Positions 7,469 through 45,033 of a stretch of 64,000 bases of DNA are shown here, piece after piece. The stretch comes from an uncultured cyanobacterium (GTDB lineage: Bacteria; Cyanobacteriota; Cyanobacteriia; Cyanobacteriales; Cyanobacteriaceae). The notes beneath the pieces were generated by a model, which had not been told where the DNA came from, did no database searches, and was given only the letters and a program-made list of their open reading frames with translations. A program made the translations under genes and the position numbers. The stretch is taken from NCBI GenBank assembly GCA_963710605.1, contig CAVQBA010000007.1, forward strand, positions 64,001 to 128,000, written 5' to 3'. Positions within the stretch are counted from its first letter, which is position 1; the number at the start of each line of letters is the position of its first letter.

Positions 7469-8877
7469 ATGACCGCTACACAATCTTCTTTGGACTTAAA
7501 ACAACAAAATAGTACTAATACTCTTCCTGTAGGTGGTCTAGACCCCGAAAATTTTGATTATAAGGAAGTATGGTATCCTCTTTTTTTATCAGTGATTTAG
7601 CTAAAGACAAACCTACTTCTTTTACTTTATTAGACGAAGATTTAGTTATTTGGTGGGATAAAGCCGACGAACAATGGCGAGTATTTACCGATATGTGTCC
7701 TCATCGTTTAGCACCTTTAAGCACAGGTAGAGTTAACGAAGATGGTTTATTAGAATGTGCTTATCACGGTTGGACATTCTCAGGAAACGGTAATTGTGAG
7801 TTTATCCCTCAACAACTAGAAGGAAAAAGTCGAGAAAAATCCGATCGTGCTTGTGTCAAATCTTATCCGACAACGATCGTTCACGATATGTTATTTGTTT
7901 ATGCAGGTAAACCAGAAAATGCACCTTTAGTTTCTGTACCCATCACTCAACCCTTGACGGAAAATAAGGACAAATGGGTTGTGATGAAGACATTTAGAGA
8001 TATACCTTATGATGCTTTAACTTTGTTAGAAAATGTTTTGGATGCTAGTCATGTGTCTTATACCCATCATGGCACAGTGGGTAATCGTTCTAATGCCGCT
8101 CCTGTAGAGTTAGAGGTAACTAGTCGTAATCGCCAAGGTTTTACTGGTTTTTGGGAAGAAGGACCCCGTAAAGGTACACTTGGTAGTCAGACAACTACTT
8201 TTATTGCTCCAAATTTGATGTGGCATGATTTGGAATCAGAAAAAATAGGACGGACAATGACGGTTGTTTATGTTACTCCGATTAGTAAAGGTAAATGCCG
8301 TCTTTTTGCTTTATTTCCGTTTCAGTTTGCTTCAAAAGTACCTCAATTATTTATTAAACTAACTCCTCAATGGTATTCTCATTTAAACCAAAATACTATT
8401 TTAGAAGATGATCAAATCTTTTTACATTATCAAGAGCGTTATTTAGAAAAATTAGGTGGTAGTGCCAAATTTAATCAGGCTTATTATTTACCAACAAAAT
8501 CAGATTTATTTGTCAGTGAATTACGTAAATGGATGAATAAATATAATGCTGAAATTTTTACTGAGCAGACTTTTCCTGAAACTCCGACTCACGATCGTTT
8601 AATGGAAAGATATTATTCTCATACTCAACAATGTCATAGTTGTAGTAATGCTTTAAAAAATATCAATAAGATTCGTTTAGTTTTACTTATTATAACAAGC
8701 GTATTATGGTCGATTATGCCTGTAATTAGTCTATATGTAAATAGTTTACCAACAGTAATTGTGCCGATCGTTTCTGGTGTTAGTTTGATTAATGTTGCCC
8801 TGTATTTATATTTAGGAAAACTCAAAAATAGATTTTATCAAGGTGTGGAAGTGCCTTCTAGGAATATAGCGAAATAA
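7469..8877 (+). CDS. Rieske 2Fe-2S oxygenase (PaO/Tic55-like), frameshifted in a T run at 7581-7587
   Basis: CPHRLAPLS...CAYHGW Rieske motif, ENVLDASHVSYTH, CxxC; the upstream frame from ATG 7469 gives ...FDYKEVWYPL and joins if one T is added. Confidence 0.88.
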
Positions 8878-35828: not shown

Positions 35829-36221
35829 ATGGTGAGTTTGAAGGAAGAGGGTGGCGAGTTGACTGGGGCGGTTATTGGTGCGGCGATTGAGGTACATCGA
35901 GTATTAGGAGCGGGTTTTTTGGAGTCTTTGTATGAGAATGCGTTGGCTGTGGAATTGCGAAGAAGGAATATATCTTTTGAACGACAAAAAGTAATTTTAG
36001 TTAATTATAAAGGTCATCCGATCGGTCAAAATAGGTTAGATTTTCTAATTGAAAATAGATTAGTAGTCGAACTCAAAGCCGTAGCTAACTTAACCCCATT
36101 ACACGAAGCACAAGCCCTATCTTACCTCAAAGCCACCAACCTCAATCTAGCACTACTCATCAACTTCAACGTAACCCGCCTTAAAAACGGAATCAAACGT
36201 ATCGTCCGTAGTAACTACTAA
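35829..36221 (+). CDS. GxxExxY protein (PD-(D/E)xK nuclease-like)
   Basis: AIEVHRVLGAGFLESLYE, RLDFLIE, VVELKAV, AQALSYL, LLINFN. Confidence 0.92.
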   Translation: MVSLKEEGGELTGAVIGAAIEVHRVLGAGFLESLYENALAVELRRRNISFERQKVILVNYKGHPIGQNRLDFLIENRLVVELKAVANLTPLHEAQALSYLKATNLNLALLINFNVTRLKNGIKRIVRSNY

Positions 36222-36634: not shown

Positions 36635-38275
36635 ATGAAATTTAACTACACCTACACCAACACCACCAGCGTTCAACAAACCAGTAACAACACCCAGATG
36701 TCATTTTCCCCAGACATCCAACGGCAACCCACCTACTTCATCGGCGAACTAAGACAAAACATCAACTTCCGTGAAGCCATCAGTGCCTTACATCATGTAG
36801 TAGTCTCAGATTTACGTTTCAAACCCAAAGACAAAGAAGCCTATAAACAATGGCGATCGCAACAAGACGATTTAGACTGGCAACTAGTCGCCGCCCAACA
36901 AAAAGCCGTAGCGGACAAAATCACACCATTACAAGAAGAACTAAATGTTCTACAACAAAATAGCTACCAGCGACGACAACCTTATTACACAGCCCAAAGA
37001 AAATATTATGATTACCTCTATCAAAAAGATTATGATATGTGGTATGTACTCGATCCAGTAATAACCGTTCATCCTGATGAAGTGTTTTTCGAGTGTTTTA
37101 GTCAAGACGAATCAACTTACGGCAGACTCGGTGCAAGTTATGAAGTATTTAAAAATATCAACGAATTTGCTTGTGGTACAACTAATATCGATTATTCCGC
37201 CGCTTTATATAACGAATTCCAAAAAGTCCGCAGTTACAAAACTACACAATTCACGATCGACCCCTCTGGTTTTGAAGTAGAAACCAAACATGAAGAATTA
37301 TTCAAAGAAGTAAAAATCGATCTGCCTGATAGTTGGGTAAGGGGTTTCTTGCAAGTAAGTTCGGCAATGTCTTTACCTACGATCGAGTTTGATTTGCATC
37401 CAATGGATGTTTATAATATCTGTCTTATCCTTCGTCGTCATAAAGAGAAAAAAGGACCTCGTGGAATGCGTTATCATCTAACACCAGGTCAACCCGTAAA
37501 AGTTGTTTTTGAACCTTGGAATATTGAATTAATCTGTTCTCGATCGCCTTATACAGGAACACAAGAGCAAGAAATTCGTGTTTGGGGTCGTCGTCGTATT
37601 CATATTTTAGAACGTTTGATCCCGATCGCTAAAAAATTTACGGTTCATCTTTTGGGTACGGGTATGCCTTCGTTTTATATTGCCGACTTAGGGGATATGT
37701 CTTTTACTCTTGGTTTGTCGGGATGGACGGCTAATGATTGGTCAAATTCTGGTAATTTCGATCTCATGGCTTCTCGTACCGAAATCGATCGTTGGACAAA
37801 ACAACATATCTTCAATTCTCTCAAGGAAAATTGGGCAGAAAACCCTTACGATTTAGCTAAACGTTTGAATATGAATCCTGCGGTGATTCTAGGTGCATTA
37901 GGGGCATATACCCAAGCAGGTAGAGCAATTTATGATCTCAATAAAGGTGTTTACCGTGTCCGAGAATTAACCCGTGAGCCTTTACCAATGGAGAAATTAC
38001 GATTTGCTAACGATCGAGAAGCTAAGGCAACTCGCTTTTTGTCGGGGAATCAAGTCACTATCTCTCATGTAAATGAAGACAATATGGGGGGTTATAGTTT
38101 AGAAGGGAGAGTAAACGATCGTCATAAAACTCATAATCCATCTTTAACGGTAGATGCAGATCAACGCATGACACAAGCTAAATGCGATTGCAATTGGCAC
38201 AAACAAAATAAACTTTATAAAGGACCTTGCGAACATATTTTGGCTTTAAAAATGGAACATAACAGAAGACATTAA
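36635..38275 (+). CDS. SWIM zinc-finger protein; candidate retron partner
   Basis: C-terminal CDC...GPCEH (CxCxnCxH); LDPVITVHPD.VFFECFS, DLPDSWVRGFLQV. Confidence 0.88.
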   Translation: MKFNYTYTNTTSVQQTSNNTQMSFSPDIQRQPTYFIGELRQNINFREAISALHHVVVSDLRFKPKDKEAYKQWRSQQDDLDWQLVAAQQKAVADKITPLQEELNVLQQNSYQRRQPYYTAQRKYYDYLYQKDYDMWYVLDPVITVHPDEVFFECFSQDESTYGRLGASYEVFKNINEFACGTTNIDYSAALYNEFQKVRSYKTTQFTIDPSGFEVETKHEELFKEVKIDLPDSWVRGFLQVSSAMSLPTIEFDLHPMDVYNICLILRRHKEKKGPRGMRYHLTPGQPVKVVFEPWNIELICSRSPYTGTQEQEIRVWGRRRIHILERLIPIAKKFTVHLLGTGMPSFYIADLGDMSFTLGLSGWTANDWSNSGNFDLMASRTEIDRWTKQHIFNSLKENWAENPYDLAKRLNMNPAVILGALGAYTQAGRAIYDLNKGVYRVRELTREPLPMEKLRFANDREAKATRFLSGNQVTISHVNEDNMGGYSLEGRVNDRHKTHNPSLTVDADQRMTQAKCDCNWHKQNKLYKGPCEHILALKMEHNRRH

Positions 38276-38293
38276 AATGGTTCGGTATTTTAT

Positions 38294-39469
38294 TTAACTT
38301 TGATGCAACTGATTGTGAATGACGATCGAATTGTCATTACAATCTTTGCCTACTATATAAACATCAACTAATCCATCACTAAACAGATATACTTGAATAT
38401 CGGTCAAACTTGACCTAACTTTTTGTGAAAATGATTTAATCTCTTTTAACCAAGATGGAGTATATCCGTCTTCTAGATCGCTATTCTCGCCAAAAAAACC
38501 TGATTCTAATTCTGTAGCTACCATCGCATGAGTATTAATTAAAATATTATGAACTAATGCTTCTTTGGTTTCGGCTATTTCCCAAACAAAACAGTCTAAA
38601 TCTCCATCGTATATGTCTATAGCATTTAATTGTTCGTCGATCGTCTTTTTTAAAACTTTATTTTCTGACTTATGTGATGCTTTATCTAATATTCTTTTTC
38701 GAGTAGGATATGCCCCATATTTGTCGTAATGAGCTACTCTGGTAGAAACACCAATCCAATCTCCATAGATAGTATTACCAATCAAAAATAAAAGACCTTC
38801 CTCAAATAAATTTTCATCTATATTTAGTGAATAAAACTTATAATCTGCCAAATATAAATAAGATGTCAGCAAGTCAATAATTAATTCGTATTCTTGTATC
38901 GGATTCTCTGATGAATACAAAAAGATACTTTTAGTATCTACCTCAACAAATAAGCCTGTAGTTTCTAAAAATAGATCTAAACTAAATTGACCTCTTAATT
39001 TACTATCCCATAAAAATAGATCGTAGGGTTCTGAGCTTTCGGTATTATGATGGTTATGAAGTCCATAAAATAATTTTCTTAATGTTTGAACTAATTCTGC
39101 GTTTGGATTATTTAATTCATCAGCAAGTAAAATATGAGTAGAGGGAAAATCGATCGCTTGAGAAATATCAACCCCTGTTAAATCTGCACCAAATAATATT
39201 GTCTCATTAAAATTAGTACCATTTACGATCGCACCTTGTAAATTTGACCCTTCTAAATTAGCTAAGGATAAATTTGATCCGCTTAAGTCTATATTTTGTA
39301 AATTACTCTCACGTAAATATACTTCTTCCAAATTGCAATTAATTAATTTTGCTCCCTTCAAGTTAGTTTGTGATAGATTAATTGCTCTCAAATCTTGGTT
39401 TTCTAAATGAATATTGGCAAAATTACTCTCACCGTTTTCGATTTTGTTTTTCAGTTGTTCGGCATCCAT
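38294..39469 (-). CDS. Pentapeptide-repeat protein with probable NuiA-like (nuclease A inhibitor) C-terminal domains
   Basis: N-terminal A(N/D)Lxx repeats; ESSEPYDLFLW, IG...GDWIGVSTRV, LTDIQVY...VDVYIVGK resemble NuiA. Confidence 0.7.
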   Translation of the reverse strand: MDAEQLKNKIENGESNFANIHLENQDLRAINLSQTNLKGAKLINCNLEEVYLRESNLQNIDLSGSNLSLANLEGSNLQGAIVNGTNFNETILFGADLTGVDISQAIDFPSTHILLADELNNPNAELVQTLRKLFYGLHNHHNTESSEPYDLFLWDSKLRGQFSLDLFLETTGLFVEVDTKSIFLYSSENPIQEYELIIDLLTSYLYLADYKFYSLNIDENLFEEGLLFLIGNTIYGDWIGVSTRVAHYDKYGAYPTRKRILDKASHKSENKVLKKTIDEQLNAIDIYDGDLDCFVWEIAETKEALVHNILINTHAMVATELESGFFGENSDLEDGYTPSWLKEIKSFSQKVRSSLTDIQVYLFSDGLVDVYIVGKDCNDNSIVIHNQLHQS

Positions 39470-39557
39470 AAATCTTTAAGTTGCGATCGATCGCTTATGT
39501 TATCTTTGTGTCTATTTAGCTTATGATATATTACTTGAATAAAAAATCAAATCTTAC

Positions 39558-39586
39558 TTGACTTTTTCTTCAACATTAGTTATATT
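39558..39586 (+). promoter_or_regulatory. Sigma70-type promoter for the ncRNA-RT transcript
   Basis: TTGACT (39558-63), 17-nt spacer, TATATT (39581-86), 25 nt upstream of the first unit. Confidence 0.7.
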
Positions 39587-39610
39587 AGAGATAGCTTGAA
39601 AAAGCAATCG

Positions 39611-39863
39611 ATCGATAATCTTGCAATCCTATTTGGTGTATCGCCATTTGTGTATTAAGTAAAGATCAAGCATCACTAGCTAATTTTTCACCTAGTGCGA
39701 AGCCAGCAGGGTTAAACTGTTTGGCTTCTATCGAAGAACGAAAGTTTATTATTTACTAGTCAGTATTTAATATTTGTTCTTTAGACCCTAATATTAAGTA
39801 GGGGTGGGCTGTCTTCGCCGAGTTAAATTATCTAGTCAAATGTATTATTCGAAGATTATCGAT
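39611..39863 (+). ncRNA. Retron msr-msd-like unit 1
   Basis: Perfect 12-bp inverted repeat ATCGATAATCTT (39611-22)/AAGATTATCGAT (39852-63); G at 39623; GTGTATCGC hairpin; CAAGCATCACTAGC; branched msd. Confidence 0.75.
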
Positions 39864-39938
39864 TACCTGAAATGGTCTAGTTATAAGTTAATTTATTTAG
39901 ACTTGACTATTTTCAAAAACATACAATTGAGTCAATAG

Positions 39939-40174
39939 GCTGACTTTGTTGGATTAAAGAACCTTGCAATTAATGGATAGTGTATCGCTATTCTTGTCGT
40001 TAGTTTACTACAAGCATCACTAGCCTCCTCTTGACTGTACGGTCATGCAGTACTAGTTACTTTCCCGGTGTGAATTCGGTGAAATGTAATAAGTAACTAG
40101 TACTGCGACCGCTTGAGTTGAGTAGTCTAGTCCGCCGAAGGCTTACGAAGGAAAAAAATCCCAACAAGATCAGC
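39939..40174 (+). ncRNA. Retron msr-msd unit 2
   Basis: Inverted repeat GCTGACTTTGTTGGATT (39939-55)/AATCCCAACAAGATCAGC (40157-74) plus CCTT/AAGG; G at 39966; same msr motifs; msd with perfect 16-bp stem 40047-62/40091-106. Confidence 0.85.
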
Positions 40175-40247
40175 TTGTTTCTTTTTTGTTTATTTAATTA
40201 AAAAAATCGCTATTTTGTCAAAAAGTTAATCATCACATCATATACCA

Positions 40248-41642
40248 ATGTCTGAACAACCTCGTACTCGTCAGGAACTTTACAATCTAGTTCGTCAAAG
40301 AGGAAAAGATGTATTTATCTTAGAAGAAATGGTTCGCTTGGGTTTTTGGCCAGCCGAAGGAGAGCTTCCGAACGATCCTGCTGACGATATTCGACGTATG
40401 GGGGAGATTAGGCAAGAATTAAACCAGTTAAGACAAGAAAGTAGAAATCTTCAGGATGAAAAACTTCTCCGCAAAAGATTATTAAAAGAAAGATTAGCTG
40501 AATCTCGTCGCAAACAAGCGGAAAACAAGGAAAAAAGAGAACGAGAAAGAATTGCTAGGGCTGAGACTTGGCAAAAGAAGAAACAAACAGAGATTACTTA
40601 CTTAGGAGAAGATGTTTCTGGCGGTTTAAACTATACTGAGTGTAATCGAGAAAAATTAGAAGCACGATCGTTACCCATTTTAGGTAATGCCCTCGAAATA
40701 GCTACAGCTATGGGTATTACCGTTCCTCAGTTAAGATTTTTAGCTTTCAATCGTAAAACTTCGACTGTGTCTCATTATGTTCGTTTTAAAATTCCTAAAA
40801 AGACTGGTGGTGAAAGATTAATTTCTGCACCTATGCCCAGATTAAAAGAAGCTCAGTATTGGATATTAGAACATATTTTAAATAAAATACCCGTTCACGA
40901 TGCCGTTCATGGTTTCAGAAACGATCGTTCTATTGTCACTAATGCTCAACCTCATGTGGGTGCAAATATTGTGATTAATTTTGATTTAGAAAATTTTTTT
41001 CCTTCTGTTTCTTACAAACGAGTTAAAGGCTTATTTCGCTCTTTTGGTTATAGTGAGGCGGCGGCGACTATTTTTGGCTTAATTTGTACTGAAGCCGAAT
41101 TAGAAGAAGTGGAATTAGATGGAATGACTTACTATGTCGCTTTAGACGATCGACATTTACCACAAGGCTCACCTGCTTCACCCGCAATTACTAATATAAT
41201 GTGTCATCGTTTAGATGAATCTTTGACTAAGATGGCACAAAGAAAAGAATTTGTTTATACTCGTTATGCAGACGATCTCACTTTTTCTACTACTGCGGTT
41301 AATCCTCGTATCGGTCATATTCTCAAAGATACTGATTCGATAGTAAGATATGAAGGTTTTAAAATTAATCAGAAAAAAACTAGAGTATTACGCAAAAGTC
41401 GGCAACAAGAAGTTACAGGTATCGTGGTTAATGAAAAACTAAACATCGATCGTCAAACACTCAAAAAATTTCGGGCGACTCTTCATCAAATAGAAATGAA
41501 TGGTTTTGATAATGCCTCTTGGGGAAACAGCAAAGATATTATGGATTCAATTAAAGGTTTTGCTAATTTTGTAGCGATGGTTAACCCTGAAAAAGGAGCA
41601 AAATTTCTGACTCAAATTCAACGTATTGAGCAACAGTTATAG
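40248..41642 (+). CDS. Retron-type reverse transcriptase with long charged N-terminal extension
   Basis: IPKKTGGERLISAP, NAQPH (region X NAxxH), DLENFFPS, LPQGSPASP, YTRYADDLTFS, QEVTGIVVN (region Y VTG). Confidence 0.95.
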   Translation: MSEQPRTRQELYNLVRQRGKDVFILEEMVRLGFWPAEGELPNDPADDIRRMGEIRQELNQLRQESRNLQDEKLLRKRLLKERLAESRRKQAENKEKRERERIARAETWQKKKQTEITYLGEDVSGGLNYTECNREKLEARSLPILGNALEIATAMGITVPQLRFLAFNRKTSTVSHYVRFKIPKKTGGERLISAPMPRLKEAQYWILEHILNKIPVHDAVHGFRNDRSIVTNAQPHVGANIVINFDLENFFPSVSYKRVKGLFRSFGYSEAAATIFGLICTEAELEEVELDGMTYYVALDDRHLPQGSPASPAITNIMCHRLDESLTKMAQRKEFVYTRYADDLTFSTTAVNPRIGHILKDTDSIVRYEGFKINQKKTRVLRKSRQQEVTGIVVNEKLNIDRQTLKKFRATLHQIEMNGFDNASWGNSKDIMDSIKGFANFVAMVNPEKGAKFLTQIQRIEQQL

Positions 41643-41761
41643 TTTAGTTATGTCAATTTATACCTAAAGCGAGACCAAGGTAACGGATTTTGACAACATT
41701 TTGGTGAGATAAAAATTTATATTTACCATAATTAATAATTGAATTTGTAGCTAATCTTTAA

Positions 41762-41868
41762 TATAGCAAGTAACAAGTAGGGAGCGGACATATCAACCAC
41801 CCCTAACCCCTCCTTCAAAGGAGGGGGAACTTCATTCAACTATTCAAAACAACTTGTTTACTGCTATA
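41762..41868. repeat. TATAGC...GCTATA cassette containing a REP-like hairpin
   Basis: CCCCTAACCCCTCCTT-CA-AAGGAGGGG inside inverted ends TATAGCA/TGCTATA. Confidence 0.65.
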
Positions 41869-42040
41869 GCTAATAACTTAAGATATCGGTGTAAAAACAA
41901 TTTTTTTCAAAGAAAATATTTTCTTTTTGTACCCTTGTAGTAACAGTGTTTATAGCTTATTTGATAATAAAGTCACATTAAAGTCACAGAATTGAGAAAT
42001 AAATTCATTAAAATCTAAAGCAACCAACTTTCGAGCTTTT

Positions 42041-42940
42041 GTGAAAATGAAACCTAATTCCTCTAAAGAAAAATTCTCTCCAGAAAATACACCCAATTAT
42101 CATCACGAGGAAAACCAACCCGAACCATACAACTATATACCAGAAGAATATATACCAGAAGAAAAGATACACACAAAGGCAGAAAAAGATCTACTCAACT
42201 ATTCTCCACAAGAGTTTGATGCACTACGTAAAATAATTAAAGAAAGTAACTTACTACACTTATCTTTTCACTTTCTTGATTATATTTTACGATTGCAAAA
42301 ATCAGTTTTTGAACAGATTTATACTCAACAGAAATTACCTAAAATCATTATTTCAATGTCAATATTGTGTGTGTTTTTATCAGGTATTTACGGTTTAACA
42401 ATGGGAATGAATCATAGTTTTTTATTAGCTATCTCTTCAGCCATAAAATTACCAATGTTGTTTTTACTAACTGCGGTTATTTGTATTCCATCGCTTTATA
42501 CTTTTAACGTCATGTTGGGGCAAAAATTTAAGTTTTTACAAACCGTAGCTTTAATGATTATGACATTAGGCACAACTACAATTTTATTAGCTAGTTTAGC
42601 CCCACTCTCTTTTTTCTTTGTGCTAACTACCAGAAACTATTTCTTTTTACAATTAATGCACGTATCGATATTAGGTTTATGTGGAATTTATGGTGTATAT
42701 TATCTTTATCGTGGATGCTCTTATGTTGCTTTTAGAATGGAGCAACCTTTAAATAAATTACTGTTGAAAATTTGGATTGTTATTTATGCAGTAGTGGGCA
42801 TGCAATTAGGTTGGAGATTAAGACCATTTATTGGTACTCCAGGTAGCCCGTTTGAAATTTTTAGAGTCCAAGAAGATGGTAATTTTTACCTTGCTGTTTG
42901 GGAATCTATAATGAGACTTTTAGAGGGAAATGCAGGATAA
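42041..42940 (+). CDS. Conserved multi-TM membrane protein
   Basis: Five hydrophobic helices; SSAIKLPMLFLLT, GMQLGWRLRPFIG. Confidence 0.8.
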   Translation: MKMKPNSSKEKFSPENTPNYHHEENQPEPYNYIPEEYIPEEKIHTKAEKDLLNYSPQEFDALRKIIKESNLLHLSFHFLDYILRLQKSVFEQIYTQQKLPKIIISMSILCVFLSGIYGLTMGMNHSFLLAISSAIKLPMLFLLTAVICIPSLYTFNVMLGQKFKFLQTVALMIMTLGTTTILLASLAPLSFFFVLTTRNYFFLQLMHVSILGLCGIYGVYYLYRGCSYVAFRMEQPLNKLLLKIWIVIYAVVGMQLGWRLRPFIGTPGSPFEIFRVQEDGNFYLAVWESIMRLLEGNAG

Positions 42941-44202: not shown

Positions 44203-45033
44203 TCATGATTTTTCATTTTCACTATTATTAGCGATCGCTTTCACTTTTTCAGGTACAGTCTGATAAACTTGAGTAAGATATTGCATCACTGCTTGAGAAT
44301 CATTGTAAGCTAAAGGTATATCACCTAACAAATCAAGAACTGTTTTACGATCGTTACTGATATTAATCTCGACTAAAGAAGAATCAAGTGCGTCAGGGTA
44401 TTCCCAAAAATTATCGATCGATAAAGGGGCAGTAGTTTTATGATGATTATGTTTACGACGAGGAGTAGGTTTTATTTTACCTAACATTTCAGGTGTCCAT
44501 TCTTGTCCTGAAAGTTGTAAACTACGAGATACCCTTAATGCTTCTAAAATTTGGGCTTTATCTTTACCCCTTAATTGGAATATAATAAAAGGATCTTCAC
44601 TGAAACGATCGGCTAATTGATAATACACTGCCGCAATATGTTTACAAGGATTTGCTTTATCAGGGCAACTACAACGAGAACGAACTTCTGTAAGATTATA
44701 AGGGAAAAGACTCAAACCATTTTTAATAAAAACTTGTTCTATCTCTAAAGGCATTTCACCGACTAGTAATTTTGCTGATAACAAAGCTTTTTCTGACATT
44801 GTCGCCACTACATAACCCCAATCTTCATCAGAAAAAATATCTAATGCTAAAGTAACTCGATAAGGTTTGTCATCAGTGCCTTGTATTTCAGCTACTAATT
44901 GAGACTGTTTAAATTCTATTTTAAGGACATTTCCTTCTTTAGAATAACTACGCCCTCTTTCTAATCTTTTTTTAAAACGATAAGAATCTAATAATTCTAA
45001 CCACTTTTCTACCCACCACTGTCTTTCTATCAT
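44203..45033 (-). CDS. SWIM zinc-finger protein (common type usually partnered with SNF2 helicases)
   Basis: RLERGRSY, CSCPDKANPCKHIAAVYY, DPFIIFQLRG. Confidence 0.9.
   Translation of the reverse strand: MIERQWWVEKWLELLDSYRFKKRLERGRSYSKEGNVLKIEFKQSQLVAEIQGTDDKPYRVTLALDIFSDEDWGYVVATMSEKALLSAKLLVGEMPLEIEQVFIKNGLSLFPYNLTEVRSRCSCPDKANPCKHIAAVYYQLADRFSEDPFIIFQLRGKDKAQILEALRVSRSLQLSGQEWTPEMLGKIKPTPRRKHNHHKTTAPLSIDNFWEYPDALDSSLVEINISNDRKTVLDLLGDIPLAYNDSQAVMQYLTQVYQTVPEKVKAIANNSENEKS

Follow-up and report, generated by a model that had tools for sequence, protein, structure and literature searches.

The 64,000-nt window analysed here (positions 64,001 to 128,000 of contig CAVQBA010000007.1, assembly GCA_963710605.1, from an uncultured cyanobacterium of the family Cyanobacteriaceae) carries a retron in which two tandem msr-msd units, the RNA genes of the system, precede a single reverse transcriptase (RT) gene (Table 1). 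Retrons are usually described as one RNA gene and one RT. The RT translation contains the catalytic YADD as well as NAQPH and VTG (in VTGIVV), the NAxxH and VTG motifs of retron RTs that an earlier note on this DNA had read there, and its match to the PADLOC profile RT_XIII (1.8e-191) leaves the next-best profile (1.3e-95) far behind. Two proteins encoded further upstream, one with a SWIM zinc finger and one with WGR and HEAT-ARM repeats, match type XIII profiles too, and by these profile matches the locus reads as a complete, intact type XIII retron. In the main text of the published classification, type XIII corresponds to RT clade 10, with Retron-Mxa1/Mx162, Mxa2/Mx65, Nex2/Ne144 and Sau1/Sa163, and its linked proteins are SWIM zinc-finger proteins (cluster 114) and WGR / HEAT-ARM proteins (cluster 216), the set that is matched in the window (Mestre et al., 2020; PMC7736814). 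The canonical layout, one noncoding RNA (ncRNA) gene contiguous with each RT, is departed from here in that two units stand before one RT, which makes the locus a variant retron and not a non-member. A type XIII RT at E≤1e-40 occurs at a single place in the 3.93-Mb genome; RVT_1 matches number 17, of which the 16 besides this RT were left unclassified.

The two units span 39611-39863 and 39939-40174, with msr starts 343 nt apart, and are built on one ordered scaffold. Common to both are CTTGCAAT, GTGTATCGC, a GTG-TAT-CGC hairpin and an identical 14-mer, CAAGCATCACTAGC (39667-80 and 40011-24), followed by an msd base of CACTAG/CTAGT, closed by TCTAGT at 39831-36 in unit 1 and 40126-31 in unit 2, and by a CGAAG priming box 13 and 14 nt further on, which leads into a1/a2 arms specific to each unit. 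Direct reading and pairwise alignment confirm the coordinates, scaffold, arms and 14-mer as they had been reported; the alignment has a common block of ~62 nt and then divergent interiors. Both msr share a lineage-specific TAT loop and one-base insert. In either unit the inverted repeats a1 and a2 enclose short msr hairpins and a long msd stem-loop, with a G where a1 ends on its inner side, in agreement with the msr-msd transcripts of the main text of PMC7736814, whose Table 1 gives clade 10 RNA structures for Firmicutes, Mx162, Mx65 and Ne144, none of them cyanobacterial. Folding, which the earlier note had proposed as a check, gives RNA structures better than all 200 shuffles for either unit (z -3.8 for unit 1, -5.7 for unit 2). 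Furthermore, the msr covariance model R1, which covers 69 positions and derives from 6 units, matches exactly two places in the 3.93-Mb genome, the two units of the window (E 5e-14 and 7e-13), and because it finds only these two places genome-wide the pair with its shared scaffold is not a chance pattern. A search of 38500-42500 with all Rfam families at E up to 10 returned no retron family, only chance-level matches to IRE_I and two miRNAs.

Table 1. Features of the retron locus, in window coordinates
Feature	Position	Strand	Evidence and remarks
WGR / HEAT-ARM repeat partner protein, type XIII retron, 1048 aa	32577..35723	+	PADLOC WGR_XIII E=0, 1188 bits; HEAT-ARM_XIII 6.9e-45
SWIM zinc-finger partner protein, type XIII retron, 546 aa	36635..38275	+	PADLOC SWIM_XIII 2.6e-242; Pfam SWIM at residues 506-539
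Promoter-like site before unit 1	39558..39586	+	TTGACT, 17 nt, TATATT; 10/12 consensus matches
Unit 1 (type B) a1 arm	39611..39622	+	ATCGATAATCTT, exact reverse complement of 39852-39863; 12/12 identical in ortholog L147
Unit 1 msr, from candidate branching G39623	39623..39680	+	R1 match 39616-39686, 70.2 bits, E 7e-13 genome-wide
Unit 1 msd template, type B, approximate limits	39675..39851	+	predicted msDNA ~175 nt; DNA fold z -4.3
Unit 1 a2 arm	39852..39863	+	exact complement of a1; no T-run after it
Promoter-like site before unit 2	39898..39927	+	TAGACT, 18 nt, TACAAT; 9/12 consensus matches; weak
Unit 2 (type A) a1 arm	39939..39965	+	imperfect pairing with 40148-40174
Unit 2 msr, from candidate branching G39966	39966..40024	+	R1 match 39959-40030, 75 bits, E 5e-14
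Unit 2 msd template, type A, approximate limits	40019..40147	+	predicted msDNA ~125-130 nt; DNA fold z -6.9
Unit 2 a2 arm, then T-rich terminator-like tail	40148..40197	+	pairing with a1; a2 and T-run in most type A units
Retron reverse transcriptase, type XIII, 464 aa	40248..41642	+	PADLOC RT_XIII 1.8e-191 (residues 1-463); Pfam RVT_1

At four loci of relatives (L002, L003, L004 and L010) the alignment of the single RNA gene with unit 2 runs from end to end and takes in the msd, and on this alignment unit 2 is the canonical RNA of this cyanobacterial clade, here called type A. From 33 aligned type A units RNAalifold derives a structure of 48 pairs, of which 26 show compensatory change. Next to the G, the inner CCTT/AAGG pairs of a1 and a2 are kept in 32-33 of the 33, the 8-bp msr hairpin 1 of unit 2 covaries across them, and the G adjoins the inner end of a1 in every unit aligned. 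From the end of the msr to the TTACGAAGG box nearly all type A units measure 108-114 nt, and two units of L107 measure 118-119 nt. The a1/a2 arms of unit 2 are unlike those of its ortholog in L147 in sequence, with pairing preserved there.

Unit 1 is of a longer kind, type B. Its distance from msr end to CGAAG box is 160-163 nt, compared with 151-162 nt in the B units of genomes G091, G022 and G075 and of locus L147. B units share the msr and the basal ACTAG/CTAGT stem, their main stem has the form GCGRAGCCA...GGCTYCGC, and those of relatives also have the apical ACGGTTTGGTTTCCGT hairpin and the AACTAATGA box of type A. Type B looks like type A with ~45 nt added, the msd of the two being, to judge from these shared elements, related variants. 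The earlier note had described one RT with two msr-msd units whose msd interiors are unrelated: both units are indeed genuine retron RNA genes, accompanied by one type XIII RT, and the unrelatedness has to be given up, since B shares the basal stem with A and, in relatives, the apical hairpin and box as well. A B-specific pattern also finds L170, L173 and the metagenome contigs L183, L185, L189 and L191 (these four also with an msr model match), which brings the B units to 11. All but one (10/11) are accompanied by another msr unit at their locus; the one without, L185, is a contig of 2,992 nt.

The stems of type B covary. RNAalifold derives 60 pairs from the seven genome-derived B units, 26 of them changed on both sides, and the pairing cells that form amount to 94.9%, compared with 83.3% in shuffles (0/500 reach 94.9%) and 35-46% with slid partners, the consensus being derived from the same seven sequences that are counted. 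In a four-unit B alignment, unit 1 of the window forms 40/45 consensus pairs, of which 7 differ on both sides from all three other B units. The msr of a B unit is most like the type A msr of its own genome for 3/4 B units (0.91, 0.89 and 0.75); that of the window is 0.65 to its own A, tied with the A of another genome. Such likeness within a genome fits one RT reading both units, and would come about by co-evolution or by gene conversion.

The B-then-A tandem is found in three other species-level genomes (L147, L173 and L170), in the order promoter-like site, B, A and RT where the DNA reaches, with msr starts 332, 333 and 481 nt apart, respectively. The metagenome contigs L183 (480 nt) and L191 (307 nt) have the same B-then-A order. 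The -35 TTGACT and a TAAATT -10 ahead of unit 1 are kept in the three orthologous loci L147, L173 and L170, where the B unit ends in an 8-bp inner arm, an outer arm and a run of T5-6. Between the window and L147, whose RT is 82% identical to that of the window, the identical positions of unit 1 are 12/12 in a1, 44/58 in the msr, 39/47 in the 5' stems, 49/60 in the 3' stems and 19/27 in the priming box plus a2, and those of unit 2 are 48/59 in the msr and 91/108 in the msd. The B interior (20/52), the B-A spacer (31/75) and the A-RT spacer (33/73) are far less alike, so that structured B parts are 70-100% identical and spacers and B interior 38-45%. By this profile the structured parts of unit 1 are kept as well as those of unit 2, with neighbouring DNA drifted to near-random. 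The possibility that unit 1 is a dead duplicate, eroded in relatives, had been named in the earlier note among the outcomes that would undo its claim. Because the structured parts are conserved while the spacers drifted, with B-then-A orthologs in three species-level genomes and two metagenome contigs, and with B stems that covary, a private dead duplicate is rejected at the level of the clade.

Arrays of this kind recur. R1 finds the RNA in 36/151 genomes of the same order, and 35 of these together with G025 were re-scanned with laxer filters. Two units are present in 7 of the 36 re-scanned genomes, at one locus in that of the window (G000) and in G022, G034, G075 and G091, and on separate contigs in G069 and G132. 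A pattern scan of all species genomes gave 109 stretches and 103 distinct places with at least one R1 match, 11 of which have two or three: two units in L097, L107, L119, L123, L142, L143, L147, L153, L170 and L173, and three tandem units plus an msd-less stub in L104. The figure of 11/103 is a lower bound, as 29 stretches covered only +/-300 nt, and some of the places duplicate loci of the genome survey; matches to the pattern that lack an msr model match were set aside as random (4/80 and 1/29 genome loci, 7/11 metagenome loci). The covariance-model scan for multi-copy arrays that the earlier note had suggested therefore yields them in 7/36 genomes and 11/103 loci. Variant pairs are common to different species (L097 with L123, L119 with L142). 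In a phylum-wide sample searched with strict filters the RNA occurs in 11/151 genomes, outside the order always as a single match.

Arrays served by a single enzyme are found repeatedly. Among the two-unit genomes other than G132, one type XIII RT is present in each of G022, G075 and G091; G034 has, besides its single type XIII RT, a distant RT at 38% identity, and G069 has two. A single full-length type XIII RT goes with 2-3 units in every one of the five genomes behind L147, L104, L107, L097 and L123, and arrays with a single type XIII RT elsewhere thus comprise those of G022, G075, G091, G034 and G283-G287.

In most loci the RNA gene begins 26-53 nt past the end of the SWIM match, with the RT 158 nt to more than 1.5 kb from it, on another contig or megabases off (G023, G046, G022, G059 and G034). 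Judged by gene order, then, it is the SWIM partner gene, and not the RT, with which the RNA gene of this clade is linked; in the window an inserted gene interrupts this linkage (38275-39611). This matters to any search for retron RNAs.

What the computation shows directly is that both units exist, belong to their families, are conserved and covary, that there is one type XIII RT and that arrays recur. Together, these observations support the idea that one type XIII RT is served by two template-RNA genes and yields two different multicopy single-stranded DNAs (msDNAs), to which we assign a probability of roughly 0.68. Unit 1 is probably transcribed from the promoter-like site at 39558-39586, and because no T-run follows its a2 arm, transcription may continue into unit 2, which would also have its own, weaker site and would end at its a2 arm and T-run. 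Pairing of a1 with a2 would place G39623 or G39966 at the end of a duplex, the RT would recognise the msr hairpin common to both units and prime from the 2'-OH of G39623 or G39966, and copying of the msd would begin at the nucleotide immediately 5' of a2 (~39851 or ~40147) and stop near the CACTAG box. Two branched msDNAs would result, ~175 nt and ~125-130 nt in length, alike at the base and different in stems and tips; folded as DNA, both predicted products form long hairpins. For the priming, for the sizes of the products and for any part that the SWIM and WGR/HEAT proteins would play we draw on general retron knowledge.

Several observations weigh against this reading. The msDNA, the transcript ends and the branch points are predictions for both units. 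A single unit is found in 29/36 genomes with this RNA, which makes the second unit dispensable, and in relatives the RT is often distant or on another contig, which makes adjacency a poor guide to the pairing of enzyme and RNA. Promoter-like sites in the region number 4, compared with 4.1 expected in shuffled sequence, and the pair counts are made on consensus structures drawn from the very sequences counted. Four sequencing runs came into question, none with more than 0.12 of the sampled words; the three that were compared with the window gave contigs only, mostly from relatives 85-94% alike and without starts, ends or strand, and so speak neither for nor against msDNA or transcription. One RNA-library contig of 352 nt (94% alike) covers 39669-40022, starting within the msd of unit 1 and reaching past the spacer to the msr of unit 2, a weak hint that may be DNA carry-over.

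The remaining points concern the state of unit 1, which in the window is the weakest copy of its kind and slightly eroded, and they bear on the alternative that it is a decaying copy in this genome, with an ancestral function that perhaps persists in relatives, only unit 2 giving msDNA here. Two base pairs of its msr hairpin 1 are mismatched in the window alone among the four orthologs, being intact in the three others, its R1 score is lower than that of unit 2 (70.2 vs 75 bits), and the msr identity of the window's A/B pair, 0.65, is the lowest of four such pairs. The outer a2 arm and T-run of L147, L173 and L170 are missing as well, yet the inner a1/a2 duplex has been lengthened, to 12 perfect pairs vs 8, rather than lost. 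Likewise, the first C of the conserved CCTTG is a T in unit 1, but this change of CCTT to TCTT is compensated in a2 by AAGG to AAGA. With 40/45 B consensus pairs still forming, the 14-mer, the CACTAG/CTAGT base and the CGAAG box intact and the -35 of its promoter-like site conserved, we regard decay as rather unlikely.

Unit 1 might also be transcribed and act as an RNA rather than as a template, either as an msr decoy that titrates or tunes the RT or as a structured leader for transcription of unit 2 and the RT. Its promoter-like site is the better of the two, no terminator follows it in the window, and the relative's RNA-library contig bridges both units; in L147, L173 and L170, however, the B unit has its own T-run. 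Moreover, its long msd stems covary, and the priming box and a2, needed only for reverse transcription, are conserved at 19/27 positions vs 31/75 in the neighbouring spacer, which leaves such a role quite improbable. We give hardly any credence to a further alternative, that the two units serve two different RTs, the second encoded at another place in the genome. In its favour, RVT_1 matches number 17 genome-wide, RNA gene and RT are unlinked in several relatives, and G069 has two units and two RTs. Nevertheless, one place only in G000 matches a type XIII RT at E≤1e-40 (the 16 other RVT_1 places being unclassified), nine other multi-unit genomes have one full-length type XIII RT each, and the lineage-specific TAT loop and one-base insert are common to both msr.

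Beyond the single locus, multiplexing could be a trait that occurs regularly, and under selection, in one branch of type XIII retrons, where one RT would serve two or three msr-msd genes, each maintained on its own, and give the cell a small repertoire of msDNAs; we advance this tentatively, at slightly less than even odds. The msDNAs of such a repertoire would have a common RT-recognition module and base and different stems, with the ~50-nt B interior nearly free between species; indeed, between the window and L147 this interior is identical at only 20/52 positions, compared with ~82% for the flanking stems. If one RT does serve both units, a natural array conserved across species would show that a single retron RT can serve several templates in vivo. 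Its natural design rules would be that the msr, the basal stem and the priming box are shared and that the stems, the B interior and the a1/a2 sequence are free. Two co-existing msDNAs with a common base, each separately deletable, would offer a way into the function of type XIII retrons, and if msDNA is the sensing or guiding part of these systems, an array would widen the recognition by a single system. The earlier note had conjectured that two msDNAs might sense two phage triggers or load different DNAs onto the partner proteins.

To our knowledge, multi-template retrons have so far been reported as engineered tools. In engineered retron arrays ('multitrons'), tandem msr-msd units with different msd are copied independently by one retron RT (10.1101/2023.07.17.549397); those arrays are synthetic, derive from another retron and serve genome editing, whereas the array of the window is natural and its two msd types are conserved across genomes. 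Natural ncRNA arrays are described for UG27 RTs, where the number of structured RNA units in tandem varies from locus to locus, each unit is the template of a short hairpin cDNA, and close relatives have gained or lost units (10.64898/2026.09.22.753630). The window resembles these in having several tandem RNA units at one RT locus. As described there, however, UG27 RTs are set apart, being class 2 Unknown Group RTs, mostly of phages, with two accessory open reading frames (ORFs) and other RNA motifs, whereas the best matches of the window's RT are retron profiles and its partners are SWIM and WGR proteins. Unlike the type XIII retrons in the main text of PMC7736814, the window has two units per RT, and many relatives carry the RNA gene at the SWIM 3' end with the RT far off; that main text makes no mention of tandem, duplicated or multiple msr or ncRNA per RT, though its supplements, which lie outside our search, may list such cases. 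With the same limit, literature searches found no published natural multi-RNA retron. The text of PMC13712802 has nothing on multi-RNA retrons, and the census preprint PMC10849725 has no occurrence of XIII, Mx162, clade 10, cyanobacter, or two or multiple ncRNA. The retron class is thus already known, and the natural multi-template layout is the new element.

The RT of the window has an uneven distribution. Orthologs at 60-74% identity occur in 12/60 relatives searched, and the closest belong to other families of the order; the type XIII RT is found in 0/19 other genomes of the window's own family, 6 of which carry an RT of another kind (~41% identity). As far as gene content goes, this points to transfer or repeated loss. 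Matches of the msr model at 47-77 bits also lie on contigs of metagenome-assembled genomes labelled non-cyanobacterial (L074, L095, L104, L107 and L115, under the labels Proteobacteria, Dojkabacteria, Blastocatellia, Saprospiraceae and Gammaproteobacteria), either by transfer of the retron lineage or by mis-binning of contigs.

Other units vary in form and setting. In L059 (7860-7956, minus strand; genome G034), one of two tandem type A units has a ~27-nt insertion in the loop of msr hairpin 1, with the RT on another contig. The type A units of L056 (G069:C32) and L057 (G132:C229) have no SWIM, WGR or RT match within 14 kb and are orphan or dispersed copies of the RNA gene, the same genomes having a second unit beside a SWIM gene elsewhere. 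Miniature units in L071 (G208:C1, ~1501-1600) and L104 (downstream of 2994) have an intact msr, a1/a2 arms and a CGAAGG box with almost no msd; they look like msd-deleted remnants, in contrast to unit 1 of the window. Between the two RNA units of G022, a ~95-nt direct repeat (L052, ~7950-8050 and 8560-8660, read on the minus strand) flanks small ORFs, which suggests a duplication or a small mobile insert. The ORFs between units in G091, G022 and G075 were considered as conserved components and rejected, as they are unrelated (DUF6745, DM13 and no family), and the ParE/Phd pair upstream of the first G022 unit was rejected likewise.

Three other genes lie at the locus in the window. A GxxExxY / PDDEXK_3 gene (130 aa, 35829-36221, plus strand), unrelated to the retron, separates the WGR and SWIM genes; L054 and L059 are examples of relatives in which these two are directly adjacent. 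After the SWIM gene and ahead of the RNA genes, an inserted minus-strand gene (38294-39469) encodes a 391-aa protein in which pentapeptide repeats are fused to a NuiA (nuclease A inhibitor-like) domain at the C-terminus; it was rejected as a component of the retron, the orthologous locus L147 having no counterpart, and is probably incidental. Finally, a second, shorter SWIM zinc-finger protein of 276 aa, without a match to the SWIM_XIII profile, is encoded on the minus strand at 44203-45033, 2.5 kb downstream of the RT.

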